Positions 28,484 to 50,632 of a stretch of DNA of 64,000 nt are shown here, piece by piece. The translations under genes and the position numbers were made by a program. Position 1 is the stretch's first letter, and each line of letters starts with the position of its first letter. The notes beneath the pieces were generated by a model that was given only the letters and a program-made list of their open reading frames with translations, was not told where the DNA came from and searched no databases. Origin of the DNA: an uncultured Spirochaetota bacterium (GTDB lineage Bacteria > Spirochaetota > B62-G9 > DRHN01); assembly GCA_964424795.1 (NCBI GenBank), contig CAYRKG010000001.1:101312-165311 (forward strand). Direction: 5' to 3'.

Positions 28484-31093
28484 ATGAAAAAATTCTATTC
28501 TTTCAGCAGCACAGAATACCTCGATAGCAAAGAGACAGGAGAAATTGTCGGCATACGTGGGAAAAGGATTATGGATCTTGCATCCCTAGGGGCTCCCATA
28601 CTCCCAGGCTTTATGCTTCCCAACGAAACAGTTAATGATCTGATTGCTTCATCATCAGATGCAAAAAAGTTTCTAATTGAACCTATTGCGAAAGTTGAAA
28701 GGATTCTGGGCAAACGGTATAATGATGAAAAGAATCCTCTTCTAATAAAAATTGTTGAAAGTCCACAGCTCAATATGATTCATGCATTTTCCATACATAA
28801 CATTGGCCTCTGTGATAAAACCATTGGCGGATTCATAAACTTCGTCGGGGAGGATTTTGGATACCACGAATATAGAAATATCCTGATTAAAATAACCGAG
28901 CTCGAGAAAAAGACAGATATTGATAATGAAAGATTGGGTAAGATTGATGAGTTTGCTAAGCAATTAAAATCCTCCAAGAAGCAGAAAAAAATTAAGGAAA
29001 CAATAGAGGAATACAAAAACCTGTACTCCAAGGAGATCTTTTCAAATGCCTATGATCAACTCTTCTTTATCATAAACCTTTTTCACTCATTCTTTCAAAA
29101 AAGCTCAAGTAATGTAGATTCCGCACTTCTACTCCAGGCAATGACCTTTGGTAATTATGGAGAGGAGAGCTACTTTGGTAGCTGCTTTACACGAGATATC
29201 ATAACAGGAGAAAACGAGATAAGTGGCCAATTCTTTGTAAATGCCTTTGATGCAACTGAAACTAAGGGAAAATCTGTTACAAAAATTGATGCTGTATACC
29301 TCGAAGAACTAAAACGGTTATCTTCCGAGCTGGAGAAATACTTTAAGGAAATCCGCCAGATCCGTTTTACTGTTGAAAATGGAAGATTTTATGTAATAGA
29401 TCAGATTCCTGTTCCCAATAAATCAACCCAGGCAGAAATTAAAACACTGCTCCATCTTCATTCGCAAAATATTGTTGACGACACATATGTTATCAATGCA
29501 ATAAAGCCTGGAAGACTCTCTGAAATCCTGCATCCTGTTATCGACCTTAAAAGTGCAGAAAAACTCCAAAAGATTCAGGGTGGAATCGCAGGAGCTGTTG
29601 GTGCTGCAATTGGAAAGGTATATTTTTCAACAGACGAGCTCCTTAAAGCATATAAGAGGGCTACTCAGACAAACGAGGATACCAATTTCATTCTTGCTAT
29701 GCCTGCATCCTTTGCAGAAGATGTGAAGGCAATTGAGGTTGCAAAAGGGGTACTTACAAGTGAAGGAGGCTATGCCTCTCACGCTCCAGTTGTTGCCAGG
29801 AGCCTTGGTAAGGTTTCACTGGTATATCCAGAGATCAGATTTGAAAAAAACTGCATTAAGATTGGAAAAAGGACAGTAAAAGAGGGTGAATACCTATCAA
29901 TAAATGTACCCTATTATGAAATACCATCAATATATTTCGGCAAAGTAGACCTCATCGAACCATCACCCGAGGGAAGCGGACTTTTGGAGTTTCTTGAAAT
30001 TGTTCAGAAGAATCTCGACGATTTCGATGTACATGCAAACGCCGACCAGCCGAAGGATGCTGAGCTTGCAAAGCTCTTCAAGGCAAAGGGAATAGGCCTG
30101 TGCAGAACTGAACATATGTTCTTTCATGAGAAGAGGATCAATACATTCAGGGCAATGATTATAGCTCAGGAAAGAAAAGAGAGGGAGAAGGCATTAGAAA
30201 AACTGAAAGAGATGCAGGTAGCAGACTTTTACAAACTCTTCAAGATTATGGAGGGACTTCCTGTTACAATAAGGCTTCTGGATGCTCCTCTTCATGAGTT
30301 TCTTCCACATACCAAGGAAAGTATGGCAGATTTTATTGCCTTCATGAAGGCTAAATATCCCAAGCTAAGTAAAGAGGAAATAAGGCTTCGCAGTGATATG
30401 CTCAAGGAGTTCAATCCCATGCTCGGTCACAGGGGGATTCGTATTGCAATCTCATATCCAGAAATCTACAATATGCAGGTAAGGGCTATATTCGAATCTG
30501 CATACAGCTTAAAGAAAGAAGGAATAGAGGTAATACCGGAGATTATGATCCCTCTGGTTATGAGCGCAAACGAGATTAAAACGATAAGGAACGGGAAAAA
30601 GATCGAGGGAAAATCGATACGTGGGATTAAGGATGTTGAAGAAGAGGTTCGTAAGAACTTTAAAAGCGACCCCATAGAGTACAAAGTGGGAACGATGATC
30701 GAGCTCCCTGCTGCAGCTTTACAGGCAGATAGAATTGCACGATATGCTGAGTTTTTCAGTTTTGGAACAAATGACCTGACACAAACAACAAACGGTCTCT
30801 CAAGAGACGATTTTAACTCATTCTTCACCGATTACAATGAGTTTGACCTCTTAGAGCAAAACCCCTTCAAGGTTTTGGGAGAGCAGGTAAAAGAGCTGAT
30901 CAAGCTTGCAGCAGAACGGGGAAAGCTCACAAGACCTGATATTGTAATGGGAATATGTGGAGAGCATGGTGCTGAGCCTGCAAATATACCTTTTGTGAAA
31001 CAGAACGGCTTAAACTACGTCTCCTGCTCACCATACGGCATACCGATAGCAAAGCTCGCCATTGCCCAGATGAATCTAAAGCAAGAAGCTTAA
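28484..31093 (+). CDS. ppdK: Pyruvate, phosphate dikinase
   Basis: 869 aa. Phosphohistidine motif TSEGGYASHAPVVARSLG, and the PEP/pyruvate domain motifs CRTEHMFF, FSFGTNDLTQ and GICGEHG. Confidence 0.9.
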   Translation: MKKFYSFSSTEYLDSKETGEIVGIRGKRIMDLASLGAPILPGFMLPNETVNDLIASSSDAKKFLIEPIAKVERILGKRYNDEKNPLLIKIVESPQLNMIHAFSIHNIGLCDKTIGGFINFVGEDFGYHEYRNILIKITELEKKTDIDNERLGKIDEFAKQLKSSKKQKKIKETIEEYKNLYSKEIFSNAYDQLFFIINLFHSFFQKSSSNVDSALLLQAMTFGNYGEESYFGSCFTRDIITGENEISGQFFVNAFDATETKGKSVTKIDAVYLEELKRLSSELEKYFKEIRQIRFTVENGRFYVIDQIPVPNKSTQAEIKTLLHLHSQNIVDDTYVINAIKPGRLSEILHPVIDLKSAEKLQKIQGGIAGAVGAAIGKVYFSTDELLKAYKRATQTNEDTNFILAMPASFAEDVKAIEVAKGVLTSEGGYASHAPVVARSLGKVSLVYPEIRFEKNCIKIGKRTVKEGEYLSINVPYYEIPSIYFGKVDLIEPSPEGSGLLEFLEIVQKNLDDFDVHANADQPKDAELAKLFKAKGIGLCRTEHMFFHEKRINTFRAMIIAQERKEREKALEKLKEMQVADFYKLFKIMEGLPVTIRLLDAPLHEFLPHTKESMADFIAFMKAKYPKLSKEEIRLRSDMLKEFNPMLGHRGIRIAISYPEIYNMQVRAIFESAYSLKKEGIEVIPEIMIPLVMSANEIKTIRNGKKIEGKSIRGIKDVEEEVRKNFKSDPIEYKVGTMIELPAAALQADRIARYAEFFSFGTNDLTQTTNGLSRDDFNSFFTDYNEFDLLEQNPFKVLGEQVKELIKLAAERGKLTRPDIVMGICGEHGAEPANIPFVKQNGLNYVSCSPYGIPIAKLAIAQMNLKQEA

Positions 31094-31212
31094 AACTTCG
31101 GTTGTACCAAGATAGGGACAGCGCCTGTTTTTACTTCTTCTCTGGGTATTTAGTGCCATTTTCTCACATATTGAGTAACATAGCATTTAACTATTGATAT
31201 AGTTATACATTA
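30743..31212 (+). repeat. Direct repeat copy A (3' end of ppdK plus ~120 nt downstream)
   Basis: 30743-31080 is identical base-for-base to 46973-47310. After a divergent patch at the stop codon (including an indel), similarity resumes to 31212/47425. Confidence 0.9.
31115..31132 (+). terminator. Weak terminator-like hairpin after ppdK
   Basis: GGGACAG-cgc-CTGTTTTT. It is conserved in copy B as GGGACAG-ctc-CTGTTTTT. Confidence 0.35.
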
Positions 31213-31995
31213 TAGTATTAGCAAGATCACTATCAAGAAGTTTGACCAGTCATTCTTTCTCATCAGAGTTCAATCCATTAAAAACTTCCCTGAACTATGT
31301 AAGATGCTTCTTTAAATATATCTATCTACATCAAGAATATATCGCTTCTTCTCTTCAATCTTCACACCCCATTGGTTCTTATCAATTCCTTTTGTTTAAT
31401 CAGATTTATGTTAGATTTTAAACAAAAAGGTTGTATTATTAACATAGTTTTTATATATTTATAAAAGTATTCTAAAGCAATATTTGCTTCATTACAAATC
31501 ATAAAAGTTCTTACGCTTTATCTTGTTTTCTGTACGACCATCGGTAAAATTTATCTTTCATCTAATTCGGTTATATGTACTTTGGGATTATTTACGTGTA
31601 TAACTTGTTTTGTAGTTTACTTAGTTATGTATGTCGCTACATTTTGGGAATTACTCTCTGCATTAATCAATCTTAATTTTTAACCAACAGTAAGTGAGGA
31701 TTATTTTTTGGTTGTTCTTGCGGTAGTGTTCTTAAGAAGTACTCCTCTATACGGAAGTGTAGGTCGACATTTGGTGGATATTTTGATTTAATTATTAGTG
31801 GCTTTTTAAAAACAAGTATAATTATTGTTAAGCTTCCAGGGATCTACATAGAATTAGTAGACGGTTTATAATTATTTATGCAATAATCGGTTATAGGTAT
31901 GGGACTTAAAAGAGCAGGCCTGTTTAATAAAATAGAAAAGAAAAATGATGAGGTTTTAATTAATCGATTAAAGCTATAAACATAGGAGGTATAAA

Positions 31996-32817
31996 ATGAA
32001 ATTATCATTCAATACATGGGTTTATTCTAGCTTCCCTGCATGGTTACCTGCATATCCTATTGGGTATATCATAGAAAGTTTGGCAAAAATAGGGTATGAT
32101 GGTATTGAGTTGGGCTGCGCGAGTCCGGTTGCCTATCCACCATATATGACTAAAGCAGATCGGGAACGTATAGTGAACTTACTGAAAGAAAATAACATTA
32201 GTATCTCATCAGTTCTTCCAGCTCCTGGTGGAGGATGTGGGAATAATGTGGCAAGCCCTATTGAAGCAGAGAGAAAACAAGCGATTCAGAGTTACAAAGA
32301 TTGTATTGATCTTGCAAGTGATTTAGGTGGTAACCTGTGTCTTTATGTGGGCGGATGGGTGATATGGGGTGTTGATCAAGACCAAGCATGGGAATGGTCA
32401 AGGGAATGTTTGATTGAGATAGCAAAGCACGGAAAGGCAAAAGGGGTGATTTTGGCTATTGAACCTACACCCGCCGATAGTAATCTAGTCGAAACAGCAG
32501 ACGATGCTTTAAAACTTATGCGAGAATCCAAAATGGATAATGTGAAAGTAATGTTTGATACGATTCACGCTCTGTACCGTAAGGAAATACCATCTGATTA
32601 TGTTGACAAGATGGGTAATGATCTCATACATGTGCATATCTCTGATCTGGATCGTATGCCTCCCGGCACATATACAGACTTTTCTTTTTTTATTGACGCT
32701 TTACGAGCTGTGAGATATCCAGGATACCTCACAATGGAAATAGGACTTGGTGGACGTGGTATAGATGGGAACAGCTTTGCAAAGAAAGCATATGACTATA
32801 TGAAAAGCATTTTGTAA
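31996..32817 (+). CDS. Sugar phosphate isomerase/epimerase (xylose isomerase-like TIM barrel)
   Basis: 273 aa, strong AGGAGG RBS. Typical AP_endonuc_2 layout (GYDGIELG..., LAIEPTP, HVHISD, LTMEI). Confidence 0.7.
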   Translation: MKLSFNTWVYSSFPAWLPAYPIGYIIESLAKIGYDGIELGCASPVAYPPYMTKADRERIVNLLKENNISISSVLPAPGGGCGNNVASPIEAERKQAIQSYKDCIDLASDLGGNLCLYVGGWVIWGVDQDQAWEWSRECLIEIAKHGKAKGVILAIEPTPADSNLVETADDALKLMRESKMDNVKVMFDTIHALYRKEIPSDYVDKMGNDLIHVHISDLDRMPPGTYTDFSFFIDALRAVRYPGYLTMEIGLGGRGIDGNSFAKKAYDYMKSIL

Positions 32818-32913
32818 TCTCATAACCATGTTAGTAATACAATGATTTAGTTTTTAATTGTAGTGAGTCAAATTGTTATTTTATCAAGCATATCGTCTAT
32901 AGAAGCATTGATC

Positions 32914-34878
32914 ATGAGTATTGATGTTCGATTTGATAAGCTTTTTTCAGAATTTAGAATAAAAAACCAGTTTTTAAAAAATAGAATAGTCTTTTTGCCC
33001 CATTATACAGGCTTAGCAAAAAGGGAGAGTCTTCCCAGCGAAAATGAGATTTATTATTATACAGAAAGAGCTAAAGGAGGGACAGGTTTAATTATTGCTG
33101 GAAATTATGCTGTAAGCAAAAGTGGACAGATGCACTGTACTTTTATCGATGCATCAGATAATGAAGTTATCCCTAATTTTAAAAAAACAGCAAAGCTTGT
33201 TCACCAATATGGAGCAAAGATTTTTGGACAACTCACGCATGCTGGGCCTACCAAAATGGAAATTCCTCAACCTGATCTATGGGCTCCTTCCCAGGTAATA
33301 GAGGGAAGTTCTGGAACATATACTAAGAAAGTTGATTTAGATGAAATAAAGGATGTGGTTTTTTCATTCAAAAAAGCAGCGCAAAATCTCGTGAGAAGTG
33401 ACTTTGATGGTGTTGAACTGAAGATAGGGCATGATGGGATCCTAAGGGCATTTATCTCTCCCCATTACAATAAAAGAAATGATGAGTATGGAGGAAGCTT
33501 TAAGAATAGGTTGCGAATAATAATAGAAATTATAAAGGCTGTTCGGAGTATCCTGAACGATCATCATGTACTTGGTATTCGTTTATGTATGGATGAATTT
33601 GAAGATGGTGGCTATGATCTGAAATACGCTATTGAGGTTGCAAAGTATTTAGAGACACATGGTCCAATTGATTATGTCAGTACAGATGCTGGTACAACAT
33701 GGGTTAGTTTCATTATGCAGATTCCACCGATGAGTATTCCACTTGGATATGCCGAATATATGGCAGCAGCTCTTAAAAAAGAAATCAAAGTTCCGGTAAT
33801 CACTTTTGGTAGGATAAACGATCCAGTGCAAGCTGAACAGATTCTTCAAAATGATAGTGCAGACCTCATCGGAATGGCAAGACAACTTGTATGTGATCCT
33901 GAGATGCCTAATAAAGCAAAAGCAGGAAACCTCGATGGTATTAGGAAATGTATAGCCTGTCTGGATGGATGTGGGATCCAAACAACTCTCAATCAACCTA
34001 TACGATGCATTCAGTGTATTTCAGTCGGTAATGAGAAAGAGTACGGAATTGGTACATTGAAAAAAGCAAAAAACAAGAAACGAATAATCATTGTGGGAGG
34101 TGGAGTAGCAGGTATGAAAGCAGCAGGAATTGCTGCTAAAAGAGGACACAGTGTGATGTTGTTCGAAAGAGATAGCTTCCTTGGCGGTCAGCTCAACCTC
34201 GTAAAAAAAATACCATTTCGAAATGAATTTTCTGAGGTAGTGCGTTACCTCGACTTTCAACTTAAAAATATCGAAAATGTGAATATCCAACTCAATACGG
34301 AGGCCACAGAAGATCTTATCCTTGATGAATCACCTGATGTTGTTATTATTGCAACAGGCTCTACCAGGAATGTACCGCTCAATTTCAGAAATAAAAAAAC
34401 CGCAACAAGCTGGGATGTTCTTAGTGAGCGAATAGAAATAAAGAAAGAGGTTGTAATCTTCGATCAGCTTGCCAAATCAGAAGGAGTTGGAGTAGCAGAG
34501 TATATCACAGAATATTATGAAGATATAAATATTATGTTTTTTACTCCTGCCTCACATGCTGCTGAGGATATGCATTTCCTCAATCAGGATATTATTTGCA
34601 GAAAGCTTTTTTCAAAGAATATTACGTTTTATCCCTATTATGAGTTAAAGCAAGTTAAACCAAACAAAATTACCTTTCTGCACAGGTATACCAGAAAAGA
34701 ATTCATCATACACAAATACGATAATTTTATTTTTGTTGGTGATATGTACTCAAATGATATGCTTTACTGGAAACTGAAAGGGAAAATAAAAGAACTTTAC
34801 AGAATAGGCGATGCATGTGCTCCAAGGATTGTTGAGTTTGCAATTCATAGCGCTGAAAGGCTTGCAAGAAGCATTTAA
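32914..34878 (+). CDS. FadH/2-enoate-reductase-like flavoprotein (OYE-type FMN domain + 4Fe-4S + FAD/NAD(P) domain)
   Basis: 654 aa from ATG 32914; the track ORF starts at GTG 32863. OYE-like N-terminal part (NRIVFLPHYTG, GQLTHAGP, DGVELKIGHDG), a Cys cluster (CIACLDGCGIQ...IRCIQC) and a dinucleotide fold (IIIVGGGVAGMKAA). Confidence 0.75.
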   Translation: MSIDVRFDKLFSEFRIKNQFLKNRIVFLPHYTGLAKRESLPSENEIYYYTERAKGGTGLIIAGNYAVSKSGQMHCTFIDASDNEVIPNFKKTAKLVHQYGAKIFGQLTHAGPTKMEIPQPDLWAPSQVIEGSSGTYTKKVDLDEIKDVVFSFKKAAQNLVRSDFDGVELKIGHDGILRAFISPHYNKRNDEYGGSFKNRLRIIIEIIKAVRSILNDHHVLGIRLCMDEFEDGGYDLKYAIEVAKYLETHGPIDYVSTDAGTTWVSFIMQIPPMSIPLGYAEYMAAALKKEIKVPVITFGRINDPVQAEQILQNDSADLIGMARQLVCDPEMPNKAKAGNLDGIRKCIACLDGCGIQTTLNQPIRCIQCISVGNEKEYGIGTLKKAKNKKRIIIVGGGVAGMKAAGIAAKRGHSVMLFERDSFLGGQLNLVKKIPFRNEFSEVVRYLDFQLKNIENVNIQLNTEATEDLILDESPDVVIIATGSTRNVPLNFRNKKTATSWDVLSERIEIKKEVVIFDQLAKSEGVGVAEYITEYYEDINIMFFTPASHAAEDMHFLNQDIICRKLFSKNITFYPYYELKQVKPNKITFLHRYTRKEFIIHKYDNFIFVGDMYSNDMLYWKLKGKIKELYRIGDACAPRIVEFAIHSAERLARSI

Positions 34879-34899
34879 TTCTATTCATCAGGATTTACT

Positions 34900-35769
34900 A
34901 TGGACGATATAATGGTATGTGTAAAACAAGTGCCCAATACCATGAATATTAAGCTTGATCCTGAAACACACACCTTAATAAGAGAGGGCGTTGCATCCAT
35001 AATGAATCCCTTCGATGAGTTTGCGCTTGATATAGCATTAGACTGCAAAGATAGATATGGTGTTAAGGTTGGTGTTCTCACTATGGGTCCGATTCAAGCG
35101 AAAGAAATCCTCCGATACTGCATAGAAAAAGGAGTTGATGAAGCATATCTCTTAACAGATAGCAGACTTGCCGGCTCAGATACACTGGTAACGGCAAAAG
35201 CACTGTATACTGTGATTGTAAAAACAAGTTATAAAAATATATTCTGTGGCCAGGAGTCTATTGACAGCAGCACTGGACATATCGGCCCTAGTCTGGCTGA
35301 ACTTTTAGGTCTTCCTCAGGTTGTTTATGTAACTGAAATAATAGATTTGAAAGGTGGGTGGATGAAAGTAAGGTGCAAACTGGAGAAGGTATCACAAATA
35401 GTAAAGGTAAAACTTCCTGCAGTATTCACCTTCAGGAAGACCTCTCGAAAGCTAAGACCAAAGCAAACAAAGGCTTATAAATCAAAGTTAAAGGTATTCG
35501 GACTTGACAAGGTAACACTAGATGAAAATGAGGTGGGAATCAAAGGCTCACCTACTCGGGTTATTGATATAGTAATAGATGAAAGTGCATTGAACTATAT
35601 AAAAATGGATGAGAATCTTTCAGCTTATGAAAGAATAAAATACATAATGAACGGTGGTGTTGAAAAAAAAGAAAACAGGATAATGTTGAAGGGCAGTTCG
35701 AAGAATACGATACAAATACTTCTGGAAAAACTGGGATTAGATTATAGTAATATCAAGAACAAAGGTTAA
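34900..35769 (+). CDS. etfB: Electron transfer flavoprotein beta subunit
   Basis: 289 aa. IMVCVKQVPN..., MNPFDEFALD, GQESIDSSTGHIGP. Confidence 0.8.
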   Translation: MDDIMVCVKQVPNTMNIKLDPETHTLIREGVASIMNPFDEFALDIALDCKDRYGVKVGVLTMGPIQAKEILRYCIEKGVDEAYLLTDSRLAGSDTLVTAKALYTVIVKTSYKNIFCGQESIDSSTGHIGPSLAELLGLPQVVYVTEIIDLKGGWMKVRCKLEKVSQIVKVKLPAVFTFRKTSRKLRPKQTKAYKSKLKVFGLDKVTLDENEVGIKGSPTRVIDIVIDESALNYIKMDENLSAYERIKYIMNGGVEKKENRIMLKGSSKNTIQILLEKLGLDYSNIKNKG

Positions 35770-35789
35770 TTACCAGAGGAATAGCAGAG

Positions 35790-36983
35790 ATGCAGGTAAG
35801 TCCTATTTACATTGTTGATGAGTTGTGTGATGGATGCGGAGCTTGTAAGAATATCTGTGTATACGATGCTGTTAGTTTAGAGAATAGGAAGGCTATTATT
35901 GATATTGATAAATGTACCCTATGTATGATGTGTGTAAAGGTATGCAAGGTAAAAGCAATAAATATTACAGAGATAAAAAAGGATAGTGATGTATTTGGAT
36001 ACAGAGGTGTATGGGTATTCATTGAATATCAAGAAGATAAAATTACTCCCGGATGTCTTCAGATATTAAGTAAAGGTTATAAATTAGCAGCAAAACTCAA
36101 TCAGGAATTAACTGCAGTGATAGTGGGAAGTTCAAATGAAAAAGTTGAGGAAATTAAGGATGTGGTTGATGAATATGGTGCTGATTCGGTTATTTTTTTA
36201 TATTCACAAGCCATTCATTCCTATCAGGTAGAGGATGTTGCTAATATAGTATCTACAGAGATACTCCTGAGAAAACCTGCTATAGTATTGTTTCTTGGAT
36301 CGTTTCTTGGAAGAGTGCTTGCCCCTAGGATAGCGGCCAAGGTGAAGACCGGTCTTACGGCGGACTGTACAGACCTCTATATCGATTATGAGGGTAAACT
36401 AGTGCAGGTGAGACCTACCTATGGCGGTAAGATCCTTGCGTCCATTGTGTGCCCATATGATAGGCCTCAGATGGCATCGGTAAGATCTAATATTTTTGAA
36501 AGTAAAAAAATTAAAAAGAATCACAAATGTGCTTCAATTCTGCTAAAGGAAGTGTGGGTTAATTCAATAGATAAAGTTAAAAGTATCGTCAATACCTTCG
36601 ACGATGAAACCAGTAATTTGGGGATAGATGAAGCTCGAATTATAGTATGTGGTGGTTATGGAGTAGGGTCCAAGGAGGGATTTAATCTTCTAAAGCAGTT
36701 AGCAGACAAGCTTGGAGGAGTAGTTGCAGGTACAAGAAGCGTGGTTGATGAGGGATGGCTTGATTTTTCTCATCAGATAGGTCAGACCGGTAAAACTGTA
36801 AGACCGATGATATATATTGGATGTGGGGTATCTGGAGCAATCCATCATCTCATTGGCATGAAAAACTCAAAATTTATTATTGCGATTAATAGAGATTCTA
36901 ATGCCCCAATATTTAAATATGCAGATATAGGAGTAGTTGCTGATTTGTTTGAGTTAGTGCCTAGGTTAATTGAAAGCTTTTAA
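35790..36983 (+). CDS. etfA: Electron transfer flavoprotein alpha subunit with an N-terminal 2x[4Fe-4S] ferredoxin domain
   Basis: 397 aa. CDGCGACKNICVYDA and CTLCMMCVKVCKVKA, followed by the EtfA core (IVCGGYGVGS, AGTRSVVDEGW, QIGQTGKTVRP, YIGCGVSGAIHH). Confidence 0.8.
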   Translation: MQVSPIYIVDELCDGCGACKNICVYDAVSLENRKAIIDIDKCTLCMMCVKVCKVKAINITEIKKDSDVFGYRGVWVFIEYQEDKITPGCLQILSKGYKLAAKLNQELTAVIVGSSNEKVEEIKDVVDEYGADSVIFLYSQAIHSYQVEDVANIVSTEILLRKPAIVLFLGSFLGRVLAPRIAAKVKTGLTADCTDLYIDYEGKLVQVRPTYGGKILASIVCPYDRPQMASVRSNIFESKKIKKNHKCASILLKEVWVNSIDKVKSIVNTFDDETSNLGIDEARIIVCGGYGVGSKEGFNLLKQLADKLGGVVAGTRSVVDEGWLDFSHQIGQTGKTVRPMIYIGCGVSGAIHHLIGMKNSKFIIAINRDSNAPIFKYADIGVVADLFELVPRLIESF

Positions 36984-37065
36984 TAACACTAGGAGAACGT
37001 ACAAGAGATATTTGTATAGATGTTTGAAATGTATTGATAATTATTTAACTGTAAAGGAGGAGTAT

Positions 37066-38267: not shown

Positions 38268-39461
38268 TTATGAATGACCTATTGTTTTTCTTATCATATA
38301 AATTTCTTCACTTAAAGGATACTGCCCATATTTTAACCCTGCTTCATATAATATAATAATATTTTCAGGTTGAACATCATCTTGAATATTTTGGGCGCAA
38401 CAAAATATATAACCACCACTTGGCGCATAAATAGCTATTCTTCTTTTAGCTTCTTCGATTACTTCTTGTGTTGTTCCATATGGCATAATTTTTTGAATAT
38501 CTATACCTCCATGAAAACAAAGTCTATTCCCGTATGTATCTTTCAAATAAGTACTATCCATCTGATAAGCTCGAGGTTGAAGTGAATTAAGGGCATCTAT
38601 TCCAACTTCTAATAATAAAGGAACCATTTCTCTAACTGCACCACAACTATGGTGAAATATTTTTGCCTTTGTTTTTGATTTTATAAAATTAATTAGTTCT
38701 TTATAATAAGGAAATATTAACTTCTCATAAAGTTTTGGTGAGATAAAACTACCTTGTTGTGTTCCAAGGTCATCATGTAGAAATATTATATCAATATATT
38801 TCCCAATGATATTCAAATATACATCCATAATAGCCAAAGAAATATCTGTAAGTTTTCGTAATAAAGTATGCGCCCATTTAGGTCTGCATATCATATCAAC
38901 ACTAAAATTCTCAAATCCTCTTAGCCAAAACGAAGTTTCTAAAAGACCGAATACCGCAGGTGCAGCAACTATTGAATAATCAGTATTATAATAAAGATAT
39001 TCAACACGATCTTTTAATCCCTTTACTCTATGAGGATCATATGGATCAAAAAATTTATAGTTTTTTATCTCATTAATCGATTTTGCATCTCTAATTGGGT
39101 GATATATTATTTCTCCATATATTCCTTTGTATTTCCATACAAAACCAATTTCGTCAGTCCAGGTTCCATCATTTGACAATACTCTTTTATAATTTTCTCC
39201 CGCACCTATAAATACTCTTCTGAAATCTATGTCAAATTTTTGCAAAATACGTTCATCAATTTCTGTAGCCATAAGCCAATTCTCATCAATTCTTTCATAT
39301 TCAACTGGTTCGAGATTTAAATATTTTTTTAAATTGTAGTAAGCATTTTTTGTGATAGTAGAAACAGCTGCACCTAAATCAATTGGAACTCTGTCAGCTT
39401 CTTCATGATTCAATACTTTTCTCACTCTTTCTCTATGGGTATATTTCATTCTTTTCTTCAA
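38268..39461 (-). CDS. Uroporphyrinogen decarboxylase (URO-D) family protein
   Basis: 397 aa. N-terminal RERVRKVLNHEEADRVPIDL and an overall URO-D/MtaA-like layout. Very AT-rich gene. Confidence 0.55.
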   Translation of the reverse strand: MKKRMKYTHRERVRKVLNHEEADRVPIDLGAAVSTITKNAYYNLKKYLNLEPVEYERIDENWLMATEIDERILQKFDIDFRRVFIGAGENYKRVLSNDGTWTDEIGFVWKYKGIYGEIIYHPIRDAKSINEIKNYKFFDPYDPHRVKGLKDRVEYLYYNTDYSIVAAPAVFGLLETSFWLRGFENFSVDMICRPKWAHTLLRKLTDISLAIMDVYLNIIGKYIDIIFLHDDLGTQQGSFISPKLYEKLIFPYYKELINFIKSKTKAKIFHHSCGAVREMVPLLLEVGIDALNSLQPRAYQMDSTYLKDTYGNRLCFHGGIDIQKIMPYGTTQEVIEEAKRRIAIYAPSGGYIFCCAQNIQDDVQPENIIILYEAGLKYGQYPLSEEIYMIRKTIGHS

Positions 39462-39501
39462 TGTTTAATACATTTTATTATGTGTAACCAAATTATAGGT
39501 T

Positions 39502-39590
39502 GAAAAATCTCAACTCTACCCAATAATGATTTCAATGCTAACTCATAACCATTTGATGTATGGGGAGTTAATACACCATATTACTAAAAG
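39502..39590 (-). repeat. Intergenic hairpin repeat, copy R4
   Basis: GAAAAATCTCAACTCTACCCAATAATGATTTCAATGCTAACTCATAACCATTTGATG... is ~80% identical by eye to copy R3. Confidence 0.6.
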
Positions 39591-39660
39591 AGCAACCTAC
39601 TACTAAATGAACTTTATTGTGAGTGCCATTTTGACTAGTTCGAACGACAACTAAACATAA

Positions 39661-40632
39661 TTAAACCTTTGTCCTTTCAGCTCCATATCTATGACCTATG
39701 ATTGCAAATATAATTATTACTCCATATACAAGTTTTGTCCAAAACCCGGTTAAACCTACTGCTATTATTCCCGTTTCTAAGAAACCTATAATTAATGCAC
39801 CAAGAAACGCCCCATATATTGTACCAACTCCACCCCATGTAGGAGTACCACCAAGAAAGACTGCTGCTAATGCAACTAATAGATATCCTTCACCTGAAGT
39901 TGGCCAGAAATTCAAATTTATGGTGTTGGATAATATACCAGAAAATGCACCAGAGAATCCTACTAAAATGAATGATCCAATAATTGTTTTATCTACATTT
40001 ATACCCATCTCCCTCGCACTTTCTCTATTATCCCCAACAAAACGTACATGGGCCCCAAATTTGAAACGATTAAATATAAACCATAAACCTATACTAAAAA
40101 CTAAAGCCCATATCATTTGTATTGGAAAGTTTATTATTCTTCCTACCATAATTTTATAAAATATACTTTTATCAAGATCTGTAAGTACCAGATTTCTACC
40201 TTGAGTTAAAACCATTATGAACCCTCTTAGTGCATACATCATACCTAAAGTGGACACCAAAGATGAAAGCTTGAGTTTAGTTATTAATAATCCATTTATT
40301 AATCCACATACTATACCAGTGATTATACCAGCAATTAAACCTAAATAAGGACTCTTTATCCAGATTGTAATATATGAAAATGACAATCCAGAAATTCCCA
40401 TAACAGACCCAAAAGATAAATCTATTTCACCACTTACAATAACAAATACCAGGGATAAGGTAAGTATTATAATAATAGGTACAGATGTTAAAACTGCATT
40501 ATAAATATTTACATTAAGAAAAATTTTAGGCTTAAATATTATGAAGATCATAAAAATAGCCAGAAAAACATAAGTAACATTAATTGCTCTCTGATATTTT
40601 AGAAATAGTATTTTCTTATTTATTCTAGGCAT
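39661..40632 (-). CDS. CUT2-type (RbsC/FrcC-like) sugar ABC transporter permease
   Basis: 323 aa, ~9 TM segments. Glycine-rich C-terminal segments are typical of the BPD_transp_2 family. Confidence 0.75.
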   Translation of the reverse strand: MPRINKKILFLKYQRAINVTYVFLAIFMIFIIFKPKIFLNVNIYNAVLTSVPIIIILTLSLVFVIVSGEIDLSFGSVMGISGLSFSYITIWIKSPYLGLIAGIITGIVCGLINGLLITKLKLSSLVSTLGMMYALRGFIMVLTQGRNLVLTDLDKSIFYKIMVGRIINFPIQMIWALVFSIGLWFIFNRFKFGAHVRFVGDNRESAREMGINVDKTIIGSFILVGFSGAFSGILSNTINLNFWPTSGEGYLLVALAAVFLGGTPTWGGVGTIYGAFLGALIIGFLETGIIAVGLTGFWTKLVYGVIIIFAIIGHRYGAERTKV

Positions 40633-40674
40633 TTAAAACCTCTATAAATTGATTATGAAGAAATGGTTTATATC

Positions 40675-40790
40675 AATTTAGAGCCTCAACTCTATTAAAG
40701 TAAAGGTACACTATCCAAATAAGTAATTTAGGGACCATTGACCATTTGCTATTCTCATAATATCCGGTTGAATATATGATAGAGGTCAAA
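40675..40790 (-). repeat. Intergenic hairpin repeat, divergent copy R5
   Basis: Shares CTCAACTCTA and ACCATTTG blocks with R3/R4. More degenerate than the other copies. Confidence 0.35.
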
Positions 40791-40850
40791 GAGATATCAA
40801 TCCAAGAATTATACAGAGCTAATTAGAAATTAAATTTATCTTAATATCTT

Positions 40851-41600
40851 TTACAATCTACTTTTAGCAATATTAGTCATTTTATTAATAAGTTCATCAA
40901 GCGTTATTGTAGATTTATTTATTGAAGCCGAAATTTCTCCTCTATCCATTATGGCAAATCTTTCAGCAATGTCATAAACATGATAGATATTGTGTGTTAT
41001 AAAAATACAAGAACTTCCTCTTTCTTTTATTCTCTGAACGAAATCAAAAACTTTTTTAGTTTCTAAAATAGATAAAGCCGTTGTTGGCTCATCTAAAATA
41101 ACAAGGTTTGCCTTAAAAAATATTGCTCTAGAAATAGCTACTCCTTCACGCTCCCCACCAGAACATGTTAATACTTTTGATTCTGGAATGAGTAAACTTG
41201 ATGTAAAGCCCATCTCTCTCATTAATTTTTCTGTTTCTATTCTTTGTTTTTTAAAATTTATATAACCAATAAAATTAGAAATTTCTCTTCCCATAAAAAT
41301 ATTACTTTCTAAAGATTGCTGATCTGCTAAAGCTTTATCCTGATAAACTGTCTCTATTCCTGCATTACGAGCTTCTTTTATACCCCATTTATTTAATTCT
41401 TTGCCATTTAAAAAAATTTTTCCTGAGTCGGGAGGATACAATCCTGAAATAATTTTTATTAATGTTGACTTGCCAGCACCATTATCTCCTATAAGGCCTA
41501 TTATTTCATTATTTCCAACTTTAAAATTAATGTTGCCAATTGCTAGAATTGTCCCGAAATGTTTGGTAATATTCCTTAATTCCAAAAAACAATTATTCAT
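40851..41600 (-). CDS. Sugar ABC transporter ATP-binding protein (single NBD, FrcA-like)
   Basis: 249 aa. Walker A GDNGAGKST, signature CSGGEREG (variant of LSGGQ), Walker B LVILDEPT, H-loop ITHN. Confidence 0.8.
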   Translation of the reverse strand: MNNCFLELRNITKHFGTILAIGNINFKVGNNEIIGLIGDNGAGKSTLIKIISGLYPPDSGKIFLNGKELNKWGIKEARNAGIETVYQDKALADQQSLESNIFMGREISNFIGYINFKKQRIETEKLMREMGFTSSLLIPESKVLTCSGGEREGVAISRAIFFKANLVILDEPTTALSILETKKVFDFVQRIKERGSSCIFITHNIYHVYDIAERFAIMDRGEISASINKSTITLDELINKMTNIAKSRL

Positions 41601-41796
41601 TGAAATACACCCTTTTCATTGGATCTCTAATGAGTTATTCTAGTTTAAAAGATATCTTGAAGACCCCATTTTTGCAAATTAATTAATAAGATCTTTCTTT
41701 CTTCATTTTATAACCGTATAGCTTACCATCTTACGTTCTCTTGTATATGAAACCAGATTATCTTAGGAGTACAACACAATCATAATATTAAGAAAT

Positions 41797-41905
41797 GAAA
41801 AAGCCCAACTCAACCCAATAATAGTTACAATGCAAACTAATAGCCATTTGTAAAATAGGGTGTTGGGCTATGGCCTATGATCATTCTATATTCAGGTAAA
41901 TACTT
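41797..41905 (-). repeat. Intergenic hairpin repeat, copy R3 (terminator-like on the minus strand)
   Basis: AGCCCAAC (41802-41809) and GTTGGGCT (41862-41869) enclose 52 nt. On the minus strand the hairpin is followed by a T-run. Confidence 0.65.
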
Positions 41906-42157
41906 CAAATGTATTTAAGATTTTCTTCATGTATTTGAGTTCATCTAAAAAATTCCACTTCATATTATCAAGTGTCTTTGTTAACGTCATTTACAAAAAT
42001 GTTTTTATTCTTAAATACATCATTTTCATAAATCTTTCCTTTCAGATTTCAATCCTTTGCTATGTTCTATATTTATCCTCCCCCAATTTATAATATTCGT
42101 TTCCTTTCTTATCTTATAAAATATTCTATACCAAGCACTCTAAATATATTCTTTACC

Positions 42158-43186
42158 TTATCTAATTCCTAGTTTAGCCCAGTGTGCTACTTCTTTATAA
42201 TTTGATTGATCAACAAAGACCTCACCTGACCCAGTATCTACAGTTATTAAAGAAAAACCATATTTTTGATTCAAGCAAACACTTAATACACCTAATAACC
42301 CTTCGAGGTAAGGCTGCTGGTCTATTGCTAAACTTGCATATCCTTTCTCAAATGCTTCAATTACTTTAGGAGATACATCATACCCAATATTCTTAATTTC
42401 TCCTGGTTTCTTCCCTAAAGATTCCATATAATAAGGACATGCACCAAGAAATTGACCTCCAGAGTAACTTATCAACTTTACATCGGGATTAGCTGCAACC
42501 GCCCCAGCTACTTGTGGCTGAAATAAAGTAGGATCAGCAGCTGATTCCATTGAATGTTTTATTTTTACTATATTTGCTCTAATCTCTTCGAAGGCCCTTA
42601 ACATACTAACATCTCTTACCTCAAAACCTGGTTCACCCCAGTTACCATCAAGTATTACAGTGTCCCCGGCTTTAATCCCAAATTGTTCTACAGCCCTTTT
42701 ACCTAATGTATATCCTAGTCTATCCCAATAAGTCCCTATATACCCTGTCTGATATTTTTCTTGAACTTTCGGAACATCGACAGCTATCATTGTTATAACA
42801 ATTCCAGCTTTTTTCGCCTGATCAACTAGGGGTAATAACGCATCATCTCCTGGATAGCTCATCATTACAATACAATCTGGTTTAGCTGCTATAGCTTCTC
42901 TAAGTTGTTGTAAAATTTTCTCTGTTTGCCAACCTGACCATATGTAATCCACATCACATCCAAGAAAGTCTTGAGCAGCTTTCGCACCATTAAAAACTAT
43001 TGTAGCCCATAAATCACCCTCATCACCACCACAAAAGAATCTCACCTTTATACCTGCAAATGGCTTTTCCTCCATAACACCTACTTTTTCTTCAACAGTA
43101 ACTCCCTCTTCTTTTCCTGCATAAAGTGAAAAAGCGATGAAGCAAAAAATAATAATTATACTTACCAATAATAATTTAGTCTTCAT
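42158..43186 (-). CDS. Periplasmic sugar-binding protein (RbsB/Peripla_BP-like)
   Basis: 342 aa with an N-terminal signal/anchor and a GGAGG RBS. It heads the ABC genes on the minus strand. Confidence 0.7.
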   Translation of the reverse strand: MKTKLLLVSIIIIFCFIAFSLYAGKEEGVTVEEKVGVMEEKPFAGIKVRFFCGGDEGDLWATIVFNGAKAAQDFLGCDVDYIWSGWQTEKILQQLREAIAAKPDCIVMMSYPGDDALLPLVDQAKKAGIVITMIAVDVPKVQEKYQTGYIGTYWDRLGYTLGKRAVEQFGIKAGDTVILDGNWGEPGFEVRDVSMLRAFEEIRANIVKIKHSMESAADPTLFQPQVAGAVAANPDVKLISYSGGQFLGACPYYMESLGKKPGEIKNIGYDVSPKVIEAFEKGYASLAIDQQPYLEGLLGVLSVCLNQKYGFSLITVDTGSGEVFVDQSNYKEVAHWAKLGIR

Positions 43187-43424
43187 TAAAATCCTCCTTA
43201 TAAATATATTTTTAAACCCTTAACTAAACTCATAACTTTTTATATTAATGAGTTATAGAGGGGCTATTTTATAATATATCATCTACTCATAAAGTATTAT
43301 GTTATTGGTAAAAAATCAGATGACTAAAATGTATTTCATTCTTAAAACTTTAATAATCCAGAAATCTTACTTATTTCGTTATCAAATAAATTTAAAAAAA
43401 TTTAATACATAATCAAATTTTATT

Positions 43425-43534
43425 ATGTTATATTTTAAACATATTGGTTAATTTTAAATAAATTATCAATTTTTGTCAACATATTTTTCCAAAAATATGT
43501 TGAAAATATACCATTTTAGTTTAAAATATAACAT
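43425..43534. promoter_or_regulatory. Nested perfect inverted repeats in the divergent SBP/DeoR control region
   Basis: Outer arms ATGTTATATTTTAAAC (43425-43440) and GTTTAAAATATAACAT (43519-43534). Inner palindrome CAACATATTTTT-cc-AAAAATATGTTG (43477-43502). Confidence 0.6.
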
Positions 43535-43594
43535 CTATCATAGATAGATAAGCTTTGGAAGACCGTTTAAAAAAACTGAACGAGTTGTAACAAC

Positions 43595-44368
43595 ATGGAA
43601 GAAAGGATTAATAAGATTACTGAGCTTCTAGCAAAAAGGGGATATATGAGTGTACTTGAACTAGCGGAAGTAATGAATGTATCCGATATGACAATTAGAA
43701 GGGATCTTGAAAAACTTGATAAAGAGGGTTTAATAAGACGCACACATGGAGGAGCGTATATTGAGCTGAGTATGTTGGAAGTCGATTATCATATACGCGA
43801 AACAGTATACCTTCCAGAGAAAGAGGCTATTGGACGTAAGGCCTATACCCTAATTCAGCCAGGAGAATCAATTTTTATCGATGCAGGGAGTACAACTTCA
43901 TTCCTTGCATCATCAATAGATGATACAAAAAAACTAACGGTGGTAACACATTCTATTGTGGTTTCCCAAGCTCTAATGAATAAACATAATGTCGATACAA
44001 TCATGTTGGGTGGCAAGTTACACAGTGCAACTCAATCTCTAATAGGACCTCTTACCGAAGAAGGTCTTAAAAAGTTCAAATATACAAAAGCCTTTCTTGG
44101 AACTAGTGGAATTAACCTCTCAGAGGGTCTAACCATTTCAACTATAGATGAAGTTCCAATAAAAAGGCAAGCAGCTCTTAACTCGAAACGGGTAATTTTA
44201 CTTGCAGATAGTACCAAGTTCAATAAGGATGTCCTGGCTGTTTTTTTAAGGATTGATGAAATAGATACAATTATTACCGATTGGCATTTGAAAGAAACAG
44301 ATCGCAAAATACTGGAAGAAAAAGGAATCGAGGTATTATTGGCTGATAAAAGGAGGATAACCAATTAA
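43595..44368 (+). CDS. DeoR-family transcriptional regulator
   Basis: 257 aa. N-terminal wHTH (MSVLELAEVMNVSDMTIRRDLEKLDKEGLIRRTHGGA) plus a DeoR C-terminal sensor domain. Confidence 0.85.
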   Translation: MEERINKITELLAKRGYMSVLELAEVMNVSDMTIRRDLEKLDKEGLIRRTHGGAYIELSMLEVDYHIRETVYLPEKEAIGRKAYTLIQPGESIFIDAGSTTSFLASSIDDTKKLTVVTHSIVVSQALMNKHNVDTIMLGGKLHSATQSLIGPLTEEGLKKFKYTKAFLGTSGINLSEGLTISTIDEVPIKRQAALNSKRVILLADSTKFNKDVLAVFLRIDEIDTIITDWHLKETDRKILEEKGIEVLLADKRRITN

Positions 44369-44446
44369 AAATTGTAATAATTTCAAAATAGTTTTTGGAG
44401 ATTTAAAATTAGTATTAAAAATATCTAAAATCTAAGGGTTCTTAAT

Positions 44447-45298
44447 TTGAATTTTCTTCCTTCAATAGAATTGGTAAAAAAAGCTGAAAAAGAAGGCTAT
44501 GCTGTACCTTCATTCTGCATCTGGAATGCAGAAACAATAAAAACAGTTCTTGATTGTGCATCAGAGATGAAAGCCCCAGTCATTATTATGAATGGATGGG
44601 CTGAGTTTAAGCTTTTAAATCCTGAAGTAACTAGTGAGGTAGCACAAGAGCTAGCAAAAAAACACAAATATCCGATAGCATTGCATTTAGATCACGGGAA
44701 ATCAATTCAACAGATTAAGAAAGGCCTTGTAGCAGGCTATTCATCAGTTATGCTCGATTACTCAACAAAACCTTTCGATTTAAATGTTAAGGCTTTAAAA
44801 AAGGTTGTGGAGTTGGCTCACCCTATTGGAGTAACTGTTGAAGGTGAGATAGGCGCCATCGGGAGGGTTGACATGACAACAACTGAAGGGGACTCGAACT
44901 CTCAGCTAACCAAACCAAAAGATGCTGAAGAATACGTAGCACAAACTGGTATCGATATGCTGGCTGTATCCATCGGAAATGCTCATGGTGTTTATACAAG
45001 ACCTCCCAATCTTGACTTTGATAGGTTAAAAGAAATTAAAGAGGTAGTGAATATACCCCTGGTTCTTCATGGAGGATCAAGTACTCCAGAGAATCATTTA
45101 AAAAAGGCTATTTTTCTTGGGATGTCAAAAATAAATGTGGCAAGTGACTTGGTCTACACGATACGTCAATCTCTGATGAAACAGTGGAACTCGGGTGAAA
45201 ATCTATATGTTCCCCTTGCTTATGCCAAAGCTGTAAAAGAAATGGCCGGAGTTGTCAGGAGATGGATCCGGTTAACTGGTGCGGAGAGAAAGGCTTAA
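44447..45298 (+). CDS. Class II (metal-dependent) ketose-bisphosphate aldolase (FBA/tagatose-bisphosphate aldolase family)
   Basis: 283 aa, TTG start. HLDHG, SVMLDYS, EGEIG, GNAHG and LVLHGGS motifs. Confidence 0.8.
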   Translation: MNFLPSIELVKKAEKEGYAVPSFCIWNAETIKTVLDCASEMKAPVIIMNGWAEFKLLNPEVTSEVAQELAKKHKYPIALHLDHGKSIQQIKKGLVAGYSSVMLDYSTKPFDLNVKALKKVVELAHPIGVTVEGEIGAIGRVDMTTTEGDSNSQLTKPKDAEEYVAQTGIDMLAVSIGNAHGVYTRPPNLDFDRLKEIKEVVNIPLVLHGGSSTPENHLKKAIFLGMSKINVASDLVYTIRQSLMKQWNSGENLYVPLAYAKAVKEMAGVVRRWIRLTGAERKA

Positions 45299-45450
45299 CA
45301 AAAATGATAGAATCGATTTGGATTTTTCATATATCATGCAATTTACACCCTCCAAAAGATATACTCTTCATAAACAAACAACCAATCTCTATGGTGTATG
45401 GAAATTGAACTCTGAGAACATGATCTCTTTGATCATTAGAGCAAAAACAA

Positions 45451-46527
45451 TCATCTTGCAGCCCAGGTGATTGGCCCGGGCCCCTCCCTGTTTACTGCTT
45501 GGTCAAGGACCCTGAGTGCTTTGCTAAGTCCCTCAGCAAAAGATTTTCTTGAGTCTTCGTGTTCTATACTTATCACATGATCGTAACCCCAGAGCTGGAG
45601 TTCAGTGATAAAGCGCGACCACCAATTCAGGTCGTGGTCACCGTTCACAGGGTCTCTTCCTTCACCTATGGTTACAAACCGCCAGACTCGATCCTTCTCC
45701 TGCGAATAAGGTATAACACTGTGATTACCCTGAATGAAAGTGTTATAGAAGTCCACAAAAGTATCTTTTCCATGGCAATGTTTTATGGGACCAGTACCTA
45801 AGGTTTTATTTAGGTATCTCACTACAGCTATGGGGTCCATATTACGCCAAAAGAGGTGGCTTGGGTCAAAGTTTAGGCCCAAGGTAGTTCCATCATCGCC
45901 CACCCTTTCAAGGAGATTAAGATAGGTTTCAGGATTGTGAACAAGGAAATTGGGGTGAAGCTCAAAAGCGAGCGCTACACCGGAATCCCGTGCTTCTTTC
46001 ACCAGATCCTTCCATACAAAAGATGCATATCTAAACTGTTGCTGGAATGAATCGAAATGTTCATCGGGCCATGGACAGACATTCCACCCTGGTAGTTTCC
46101 CTTGCTGAAGAACTTTCCCATTTTTATCTACTATTATATCGGCAGCCGGTAAACCGGAAAAGCAGTTCACCACTCGTACTGGTTTCTCATCTTTATCTCT
46201 AAGGAGGCACCTATCCAATCTACTCATAAGAGCAATGGCATTTTTCAGTCGATTGAGGCTTATTTCTGCGATTTCACGATCAGGGTGTAGTGGATTCCCA
46301 TGGGCTGAGAGCGAAGAAAGAAAAAACCCTCTATCAACGATAGCTTCCTCAAACTCATCCCGCTTTGTAGAATCCTTTATAAAAAGCGGTGGGTCACAGT
46401 GTGCAATCCCATAGAGGCTCACCCCGACCTCGATACATTCCAAAGATGTAAATTCCTTTCTTAGGAAATCCAATACCTTCGGAAGTGGTTCCTTCGCATA
46501 AGGAGCAATAAGAAAGCCGATCTTCAT
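45451..46527 (-). CDS. Xylose isomerase-like TIM-barrel protein (paralogue of 37066-38034)
   Basis: 358 aa, GGAGG RBS. Motifs HGNPLHP, FELHPN, NFDPSHLFWRNMDPI, HCHGKD and ISIEHED. Noticeably more GC-rich than its neighbours. Confidence 0.7.
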   Translation of the reverse strand: MKIGFLIAPYAKEPLPKVLDFLRKEFTSLECIEVGVSLYGIAHCDPPLFIKDSTKRDEFEEAIVDRGFFLSSLSAHGNPLHPDREIAEISLNRLKNAIALMSRLDRCLLRDKDEKPVRVVNCFSGLPAADIIVDKNGKVLQQGKLPGWNVCPWPDEHFDSFQQQFRYASFVWKDLVKEARDSGVALAFELHPNFLVHNPETYLNLLERVGDDGTTLGLNFDPSHLFWRNMDPIAVVRYLNKTLGTGPIKHCHGKDTFVDFYNTFIQGNHSVIPYSQEKDRVWRFVTIGEGRDPVNGDHDLNWWSRFITELQLWGYDHVISIEHEDSRKSFAEGLSKALRVLDQAVNREGPGPITWAAR

Positions 46528-46816
46528 TTGAATTACCTCCTTTCAATTTTTCGGAAAATCATAATTTAGAACTGTAATACTATCAAGCCGATAGTAAAAA
46601 AAGGATTACTAACTTAGTATATTCTGCCGCAATTAATAGTCTATATTAATATATTAAAAAATAATACAAACGCTAGCAGAAAAAACAACAATCAAGTCTT
46701 AAGACAATTCACGATTTGAAGGTCAGAACAATAGTAATTCTGTGTTACCCATCAAATACATAGCAGGGACAGAGATTCACTAAATGATAAAACCAAACTT
46801 GTAAACTTAGAAATTT

Positions 46817-46972
46817 ATGTTGAAAATACTCCTTTTCTTACTTAATAAGAAAATTGCGGGTATATCTACAAAATCGGGCATACATGATTACTGCGGTCCA
46901 AAGGGTCTGTGGAAATGCCAGTAGCCTGAATATTACAAGGATTTCATGACTAAAGAGGATGCCCTTAAATAG
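46817..46972 (+). pseudogene. Sir2-family NAD-dependent deacylase, 5' fragment with an in-frame stop, truncated at the repeat junction
   Basis: MLKILLFLLNKKIAGISTKSGIHDYCGPKGLWKCQ*PEYYKDFMTKEDALK* matches the sirtuin N-terminal GAGIS..SGI.D(F/Y)R.P.GLW motif. It ends exactly where ppdK copy B starts. Confidence 0.6.
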
Positions 46973-47425
46973 TATGCTGAGTTTTTCAGTTTTGGAACAA
47001 ATGACCTGACACAAACAACAAACGGTCTCTCAAGAGACGATTTTAACTCATTCTTCACCGATTACAATGAGTTTGACCTCTTAGAGCAAAACCCCTTCAA
47101 GGTTTTGGGAGAGCAGGTAAAAGAGCTGATCAAGCTTGCAGCAGAACGGGGAAAGCTCACAAGACCTGATATTGTAATGGGAATATGTGGAGAGCATGGT
47201 GCTGAGCCTGCAAATATACCTTTTGTGAAACAGAACGGCTTAAACTACGTCTCCTGCTCACCATACGGCATACCGATAGCAAAGCTCGCCATTGCCCAGA
47301 TGAATCTAAAGGAAAATGCTTAAATTAGGGACAGCTCCTGTTTTTACTTCTTCTCTGGTTATTTAGTGCCATTTTCTCACATATTGAGTAACAGAGCATT
47401 TAATTATTGATATAGTTATACATTA
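46973..47425 (+). repeat. Direct repeat copy B: displaced 3' ppdK fragment (coding part 46973-47323) plus downstream sequence
   Basis: Identical to 30743-31080 over 338 nt. The C-terminus reads ...NLKENA* against ...NLKQEA* in the intact gene. There is no start context of its own. Confidence 0.9.
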
Positions 47426-47627: not shown

Positions 47628-47632
47628 GAATA

Positions 47633-50628: not shown

Positions 50629-50632
50629 CAGT

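Follow-up and report, generated by a model that had tools for sequence, protein, structure and literature searches.

How did the 3' end of ppdK, the gene for pyruvate, phosphate dikinase, come to lie twice in the genome of an uncultured Spirochaetota bacterium, in the same orientation and with a 15.8-kb cluster of metabolic genes between the two copies? We examined this question in a stretch of 64,000 nucleotides (contig CAYRKG010000001.1 of assembly GCA_964424795.1, positions 101,312 to 165,311 of the forward strand), which we call the window and to which all coordinates below refer. We think it probable, though far from certain, that the duplication is the scar of a homology-driven insertion that required no dedicated recombinase, most plausibly through a single crossover with a circularised chromosomal fragment of a relative. 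The feature thus looks like an ordinary scar of homologous recombination and not like a new kind of mobile element.

The 3' end of ppdK occurs twice around a metabolic gene cluster

A first-pass annotation of the window, made by a model from the sequence, had claimed a direct repeat of about 460 bp with an offset of 16,230 nt. Four comparisons (a repeat finder, pairwise alignment, BLAST of the whole window against itself, and direct string comparison) all agree on this repeat, placing copy A at 30743-31212 (470 nt) and copy B at 46973-47425 (453 nt). In the BLAST self-comparison, which the annotation had proposed as a check, the copies align with 94.7% identity over 470 columns (E=0), and they form the only large repeat in the window. 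They start with a run of perfect identity, put at 338 nt in the annotation and found here to be 339 nt long (30743-31081 and 46973-47311), and outside this run they differ by eight substitutions and a 17-nt indel in total. Three substitutions fall in the last codons of ppdK, which read KQEA* in copy A and KENA* in copy B; the indel, whose 17 extra nucleotides are in copy A, lies just 3' of the stop codon together with one further substitution; and the other four are spread over the final 100 nt (31123, 31146, 31181 and 31191). The earlier description of altered stop-codon contexts (QEA* and ENA*), an indel right after the stop and scattered mismatches up to 31212/47425 is therefore accurate. 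Both outer boundaries of the repeat are abrupt, with 0 bases of additional identity on either side by string comparison.

Copy A completes an intact ppdK, as had been claimed. The encoded protein aligns end to end with TIGR01828 (2-864 of 865, E=1.5e-201; 672 bits, with a trusted cut-off of 843) and over its full length, residues 1-869, with the proteins of relatives; its Pfam matches are PEP-utilizers and PEP-utilizers_C, and PPDK_N gave no match. The first base of copy B corresponds exactly to ppdK codon 754, and an orphan tail of the gene lies 16.2 kb downstream of the intact one, directly adjoining a Sir2-like stub; on the source contig, an open reading frame (ORF) of 72 amino acids (P0184, 47105-47323) is called inside this tail. 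Between the copies lie 15,760 nt, in keeping with the roughly 15.8 kb first estimated, which encode twelve metabolic proteins, three of them xylose-isomerase-like TIM barrels (Table 1).

The non-coding part of the repeat holds no convincing terminator or structure (z = -0.7 to -0.8). About 10 nt from the right boundary lies a palindrome with 7-bp arms, TAACTAT-TGAT-ATAGTTA (AACTATTGATATAGTT-like; 31188-31206 and 47401-47419, with one mismatch in copy B), which could be an operator or a chance occurrence.

Table 1. Features of the ppdK locus, in order of position in the window.
Feature	Position	Strand	Remarks
CfpA-like gene	25577-27568	+	Pfam PF27473 CfpA_C on orthologues (precomputed)
TP_0747-like gene	27571-28467	+	Pfam PF27497 TP_0747_N on orthologues (precomputed)
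ppdK, pyruvate, phosphate dikinase, intact, 869 aa	28484-31093	+	last 351 nt belong to copy A
Repeat copy A	30743-31212	+	last 351 nt of ppdK and 119 nt downstream; diverged part 31082-31212, tail ...NLKQEA*
Decayed ABC-permease pseudogene	31348-31918	+	stops, frameshifts, internal deletion (tblastx/tblastn)
Cargo operon c01-c05: sugar-phosphate epimerase-like TIM barrel, OYE/FAD oxidoreductase, ETF beta, ferredoxin-ETF alpha, second TIM barrel	31996-38034	+	Pfam, NCBIfam
Sub-block c06-c09: URO-D/MtaA-like protein, ABC permease (c07), ABC ATPase, sugar-binding protein	38268-43186	-	Pfam
DeoR-family regulator and class II ketose-bisphosphate aldolase	43595-45298	+	Pfam, NCBIfam
c12, third xylose-isomerase-like TIM barrel	45451-46527	-	rightmost intact cargo gene (Pfam)
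Sir2/sirtuin-like N-terminal stub	46817-46972	+	ends the cargo (sequence, ORFs)
Repeat copy B	46973-47425	+	orphan ppdK 3' end, codons 754-869, tail ...NLKENA*, and 102 nt downstream
SDR, GFO/IDH/MocA oxidoreductase, SDR, E1 beta and E1 alpha of 2-oxoacid (acetoin-type) dehydrogenase	47633-52757	-	Pfam

The differences between the copies are unevenly distributed along the repeat, with none in the 339-nt core and eight in the remaining 115 nt (Fisher p=1.4e-5; p about 0.02 when, conservatively, only roughly neutral coding sites are counted). This pattern suggests two alleles of different origin, identical or homogenised by gene conversion in their coding part, with the crossover placed in the identical stretch.

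A repeat of this kind can also mislead an assembler. On a mistaken path through the 339-nt core, the true order would be ppdK, the tail of copy B and then the SDR gene, with the cargo located elsewhere or present in tandem copies or as a circle of 16.2 kb. The sequence comes from a contig of 174,763 nt assembled from a metagenome, the core is longer than typical k-mers, and neither junction is spanned by an independent assembly: the only sequence found from the same population, a 1,164-nt Logan contig (L001) that is 100% identical to 47502-48665 in the right flank, stops 77 nt short of copy B. This population is present in the read set SRR14802572. However, both repeat variants and the joint between the Sir2 stub and ppdK must exist whichever path holds, and the alternative path would require a circle of 16 kb that carries metabolic genes only, with no replication or mobilisation function. 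We consider an assembly artefact very unlikely, and because the 3' parts of the copies are distinct and the unique flanks are four different sequences, the orphan tail beside the Sir2 stub is real on any path.

The cargo and its flanks encode no recognisable mobile-element functions

The 12 proteins of the cargo and 30 proteins of the flanks, whose Pfam domains are metabolic or structural where they have any, include no integrase, transposase or relaxase, and neither a tyrosine nor a serine recombinase is encoded by the unit or by the roughly 30 kb to each side of it; the first-pass annotation had likewise found no integrase or recombinase inside the insert. The window contains no tRNA and no match to an Rfam family. 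A plasmid or phage origin of the unit was considered and rejected, as it has no nucleotide similarity to plasmids or phages and its protein matches are at family level only, below 40% identity.

These observations bear on the possibility that the unit is a site-specific integrative island for which the 3' end of ppdK serves as attachment (att) site and which brings along a substitute for that gene end, with an integrase that acts in trans or has been lost. The locus does bear a formal likeness to islands that target and restore gene 3' ends, and the palindrome at 31188-31206 lies near the right repeat edge. However, beyond the missing recombinase, the repeat of 453-470 nt exceeds typical att cores (tens of bp) in length about tenfold, none of 40 relatives shows the arrangement at ppdK, short PPDK fragments elsewhere are split genes, and the cargo appears to be a metabolic operon native to the lineage whose ends are wrecked (see below), which leaves this explanation the most improbable of those we weighed. 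Where the first-pass annotation had left a choice between a Campbell-type and a site-specific insertion, the anatomy of a single crossover thus speaks for the former, while the lack of a recombinase and of a tRNA, the length of the repeat and its non-recurrence speak against the latter. The same points speak against its further suggestion of an island supplying a replacement end. Nor is the idea of a foreign cargo supported by the comparison with relatives, in which the orthologues of the cargo are as diverged as core genes.

The cargo appears native to the lineage and has wrecked ends

In CAZFTJ, a metagenome-assembled genome (MAG) whose ppdK is 77% identical to that of the window, a cluster orthologous to the cargo is located on a different contig, far from ppdK. 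Its proteins share 59-79% of their amino acids with the window cargo, compared with 67-79% for three core genes, and the orthologues of c01-c05 at four loci (L046, which belongs to CAZFTJ, L056, L057 and L058) share 59-81%. The orthologues thus match core genes in divergence, and their place on another contig points to relocation, so that the cargo DNA would have come from within the lineage and been moved; judged by this divergence, it appears native to the lineage and not foreign. Three further relatives have the operon order permease–c01–OYE–ETFβ–ETFα–TIM…, preceded by a divergent DeoR gene and a RuBisCO-like gene, not by ppdK.

Nucleotide composition, tried as proof of foreign cargo, is not decisive over the cargo as a whole. 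Most cargo genes are host-like, and aberrant GC content at third codon positions (GC3) is confined to 38268-43186, where it is 0.16-0.22, whereas the remainder of the window has about 0.35 and the orthologous transporter genes of CAZFTJ (L046) have 0.44-0.47. This sub-block seems to have a separate history, for example replacement from a donor of lower GC content.

Both ends of the cargo are wrecked. The 780 nt 3' of copy A, which had been taken as non-coding, contain a decayed permease gene that is 45-56% identical over fragments to c07 and to the permeases of relatives (E down to 5e-18), and that occupies the position of the intact first gene in the relatives' permease-c01-OYE operon. The intact permease orthologue is c07 (65-73% identity to relatives' permeases), 8 kb away on the opposite strand, and because it sits in the inverted low-GC3 sub-block while the decayed one sits at the operon start, the cargo is mosaic and rearranged. 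At the other end, the Sir2-like stub consists of about 50 codons with a sirtuin N-terminal motif (...IAGISTKSGIHDYCGPKGLW...), an internal TAG and an in-frame TAG exactly at the junction with copy B. That an orphan copy B abuts a truncated gene was thus rightly recognised in the first-pass annotation, while the identification of that gene as Sir2 stays below the Pfam threshold (SIR2, E=0.0045, 17.4 bits, threshold 24 bits). To judge by what they encode, the cargo ends correspond to the promoter-proximal start of an operon and to a truncated gene, not to the termini of an element.

Nor was the arrangement found in relatives. Neither cargo genes nor genes beyond copy B are found 3' of ppdK in any relative, none of the genes that do lie there in relatives is present in the window, and synteny ends at the ppdK stop codon; self-BLAST of the 10 kb downstream of ppdK in 40 relatives revealed no second ppdK tail, only local hairpins and tandem repeats. 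In relatives of the edge genes c12 and c01, these genes never adjoin ppdK or Sir2. The right flank is accessory as well and shows no synteny with ppdK among the relatives, its closest relative being a 1.8-kb contig (L055) of 89% identity. Because no relative shares any synteny 3' of ppdK, the right edge of the repeat would represent the natural limit of homology between genomes.

Searches for another allele of the same species led no further. An exact-protein look-up of ppdK gave no match, an exact 22-mer from the repeat gave none in the JGI metagenomes, and a scan of genomes for ppdK, which assigns the window to an uncultured Spirochaetota lineage, returned other species only, at no more than 87% amino acid identity (80-87% for the nearest species representatives) and all with unrelated DNA downstream. 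A peptide search with the tail of copy B found no same-species allele and gave a large number of short PPDK C-terminal proteins, of which the ones located on long contigs, considered as possible recurring orphan tails, turned out to be ppdK genes split by frameshifts.

A cargo native to the lineage could have been duplicated in place, by a tandem duplication running from codon 754 to Sir2 whose second copy was then mostly deleted, or other intragenomic shuffling of one large carbohydrate region could have stranded the ppdK tail, with gene conversion maintaining the 339-nt core. Besides the origin of the cargo, the heavy rearrangement of the cluster with respect to relatives is in line with such a history, as is the presence of right-flank families (E1 alpha/beta and SIS) next to the cluster in a relative, and the decayed permease and Sir2 stub suggest age. 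We nevertheless regard in-situ rearrangement as unlikely: it is less parsimonious, requiring at least two illegitimate events, one of them a deletion that ends exactly at the right repeat edge; it leaves the non-uniform divergence of the repeat unexplained; and the diverged tails, with their 17-nt indel, resemble two alleles rather than the decay of one sequence.

Insertion by a single crossover would account for the duplication

The homology-driven insertion that we favour would have begun with the entry of a chromosomal piece of about 16.2 kb from a closely related strain or species, which would have used only the roughly 0.45 kb of homology at the ppdK end. The donor piece, whose existence we infer along with that of a circular intermediate, would have spanned the region from the interior of the ppdK 3' end through an adjacent sugar-catabolism cluster to a break inside a sirtuin gene. 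An illegitimate end-joining event would then have circularised the fragment and created the joint between the Sir2 stub and ppdK codon 754, and one RecA-type crossover within the 339-nt identical stretch would have integrated the circle. Such a course of events would yield the arrangement observed: an intact ppdK with the incoming tail (QEA*), then the cluster and, as an orphan 16.2 kb farther along, the end that ppdK would have had in the recipient (ENA*). RecA-mediated recombination between the identical repeats could also remove the block again without harm to ppdK, a gene that looks essential.

The locus has the anatomy left by Campbell-type integration, namely a direct duplication around an insert with one complete and one truncated copy of the target gene, and its 339 nt of perfect identity within 453-470 nt of homology are of a length compatible with RecA-type recombination. 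In E. coli experiments on integration with homology at one end, 56 of 60 events were single crossovers of re-circularised DNA that left duplications of 109-950 bp (PMC3240628), a range that includes the duplication described here. As for the two tails, that of copy A is contiguous with the cargo and so would be the incoming one, which would make copy B the resident end; the C-termini of the closest relatives (…GENEEE*) align further into the tail of copy B than into that of copy A, and lend this assignment weak support.

A related route, which we consider rather unlikely, is one-ended recombination of linear DNA, that is, homology-facilitated illegitimate recombination (HFIR) in the manner of C-terminal displacement, with a donor anchored in ppdK, its Sir2 end joined illegitimately at codon 754 and the resident 3' end pushed downstream. 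HFIR, described in Acinetobacter, S. pneumoniae and P. stutzeri (PMC3240628), likewise combines one homologous anchor with one illegitimate joint and introduces non-homologous DNA of relatives with no need for mobile-element functions. Facts that support a single crossover also speak for it: no recombinase is encoded, and one side of the insert is homologous and seamless while the other has an abrupt joint. Orphan 3' ends lying 3' of a conserved gene body in rhs and type VI secretion system (T6SS) loci have been attributed to such displacement (PMC5361080). In its classical form, however, HFIR couples the insertion to a deletion of recipient DNA, usually with 3-10 bp of microhomology (PMC3240628), whereas here the recipient ppdK 3' end is duplicated and no base is shared to the left of 30743 and 46973, the one side on which microhomology can be tested. 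It was also far rarer in the E. coli experiments, with 4 of 60 events as opposed to the 56 single crossovers of circularised DNA (PMC3240628). Given a duplication of 453-470 nt and no visible microhomology, a single crossover of re-circularised DNA fits better than classical HFIR.

Several points weigh against insertion by a single crossover. In the genomes and metagenomes searched we found neither an empty site, in which ppdK with the copy B tail would be followed by the sequence from 47426 onwards, nor a donor-type arrangement, in which ppdK would natively be followed by permease-c01. By itself, a single crossover leaves unexplained why 339 identical nucleotides are followed by about 130 nt that differ by about 7% and an indel, so that either identical parental coding sequences or later gene conversion must be assumed. 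The wrecks of the permease and of Sir2 appear old, while the repeat core appears young. Moreover, because a relative has families of the right flank (E1 alpha/beta, SIS) in linkage with this cluster, what we call cargo and flank may be parts of one rearranged region. Finally, the integrated state rests on a single assembly.

Relation to known recombination systems

Campbell-type single crossovers, as known from suicide plasmids and from the lacZ-end duplications of E. coli (PMC3240628), resemble the ppdK locus in their direct duplications of hundreds of base pairs, in the pairing of a complete with a truncated gene copy, in their independence of a dedicated recombinase and in a product that can be lost by recombination between the repeats. 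The ppdK locus differs from them in that its insert is a 15.8-kb chromosomal metabolic cluster and not a plasmid, in that the circle is only inferred, and in that its copies are not uniformly similar, the 339 identical nucleotides giving way to about 130 diverged ones.

In the C-terminal displacement of rhs, contact-dependent inhibition (CDI) and T6SS loci (PMC5361080, and Jackson et al. 2009 as cited there), a gene likewise acquires a new 3' end together with downstream genes and its old end is orphaned, as the tail of copy B is here. Those systems swap toxin tips together with immunity genes under diversifying selection; in contrast, the two ppdK ends encode nearly the same peptide (QEA and ENA, a difference of 2-3 residues) and the passengers serve sugar catabolism. 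Integrase-borne islands and integrative and conjugative elements at the 3' ends of tRNA or protein genes also keep their target gene intact through a replacement end and have direct repeats at their borders, but they encode an integrase, have defined termini and att repeats of tens of bp, and occupy the same site repeatedly, and we found none of this here.

The locus thus reveals no new mechanism and no new class of element. The boldest reading, of a recombinase-free mobile homology cassette, would make the unit a strain-variable sugar-catabolism island that carries its own ppdK end, alternates between an integrated and an excised or circular state through the RecA of its host, spreads by transformation from one related spirochaete to another and has its 339-nt core kept identical by conversion, which would preserve the switch; we rate this as highly doubtful. 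If the insertion took place as we propose, the locus offers a natural example, from an uncultured spirochaete, of an accessory metabolic cluster moved beside the conserved cfpA–TP0747–ppdK operon with the help of only a few hundred bases of homology, leaving the target gene intact and an orphan tail behind. Scars of this known kind, seen here in an under-studied phylum, would mark gene flow at the strain level; they also call for caution when ORFs are annotated as partial PPDK, and they signal repeat-mediated instability and a risk of misassembly in MAGs.

Neighbouring genes and other features of the window

Together with the CfpA-like and TP_0747-like genes upstream, ppdK forms a syntenic triplet across the phylum, found by tblastn at about 40 Spirochaetota loci. 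The ppdK of the window belongs to a divergent spirochaete clade of PPDK, always located 3' of cfpA and the TP_0747-like gene.

Some relatives show peculiarities of their own at this gene. In the closely related MAG DATKZJ, ppdK is split over two contig ends (L039 2-997 and L043 10001-11743) that overlap by some 46 codons (about k=141), which suggests a break caused by strain variation within ppdK in that assembly. Tandem or otherwise repeated units of about 40-80 nt directly follow ppdK in two distant relatives (L035 12750-13138 and L014 5377-5560), and on a 1-Mb contig of a distant relative (L053 1444-3400) a transposase of the IS1595 family comes directly after a fragmented 3' end of ppdK.

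Within the cargo, an inverted repeat of 44 nt (37651/45830) was set aside, as it reflects a motif conserved between two TIM-barrel paralogues that are encoded on opposite strands. Farther upstream, the window contains a type II secretion or pilus-like gene set (PilN, T2SS K and T2SS J) at 15028-18047, as well as two sizeable ORFs with no Pfam match at E<=1e-5 (14324-14863, 179 aa, and 23152-25413, 753 aa). From 31.2 kb onwards to its end, the window is a run of genes for carbohydrate and accessory metabolism. A direct repeat of 134 nt with 77% identity (52972-53105 and 53419-53552) flanks a small ORF on the minus strand (53113-53421, 102 aa), which resembles a stand-alone lipoyl/biotinyl-attachment domain and adjoins the E1 alpha/beta genes.

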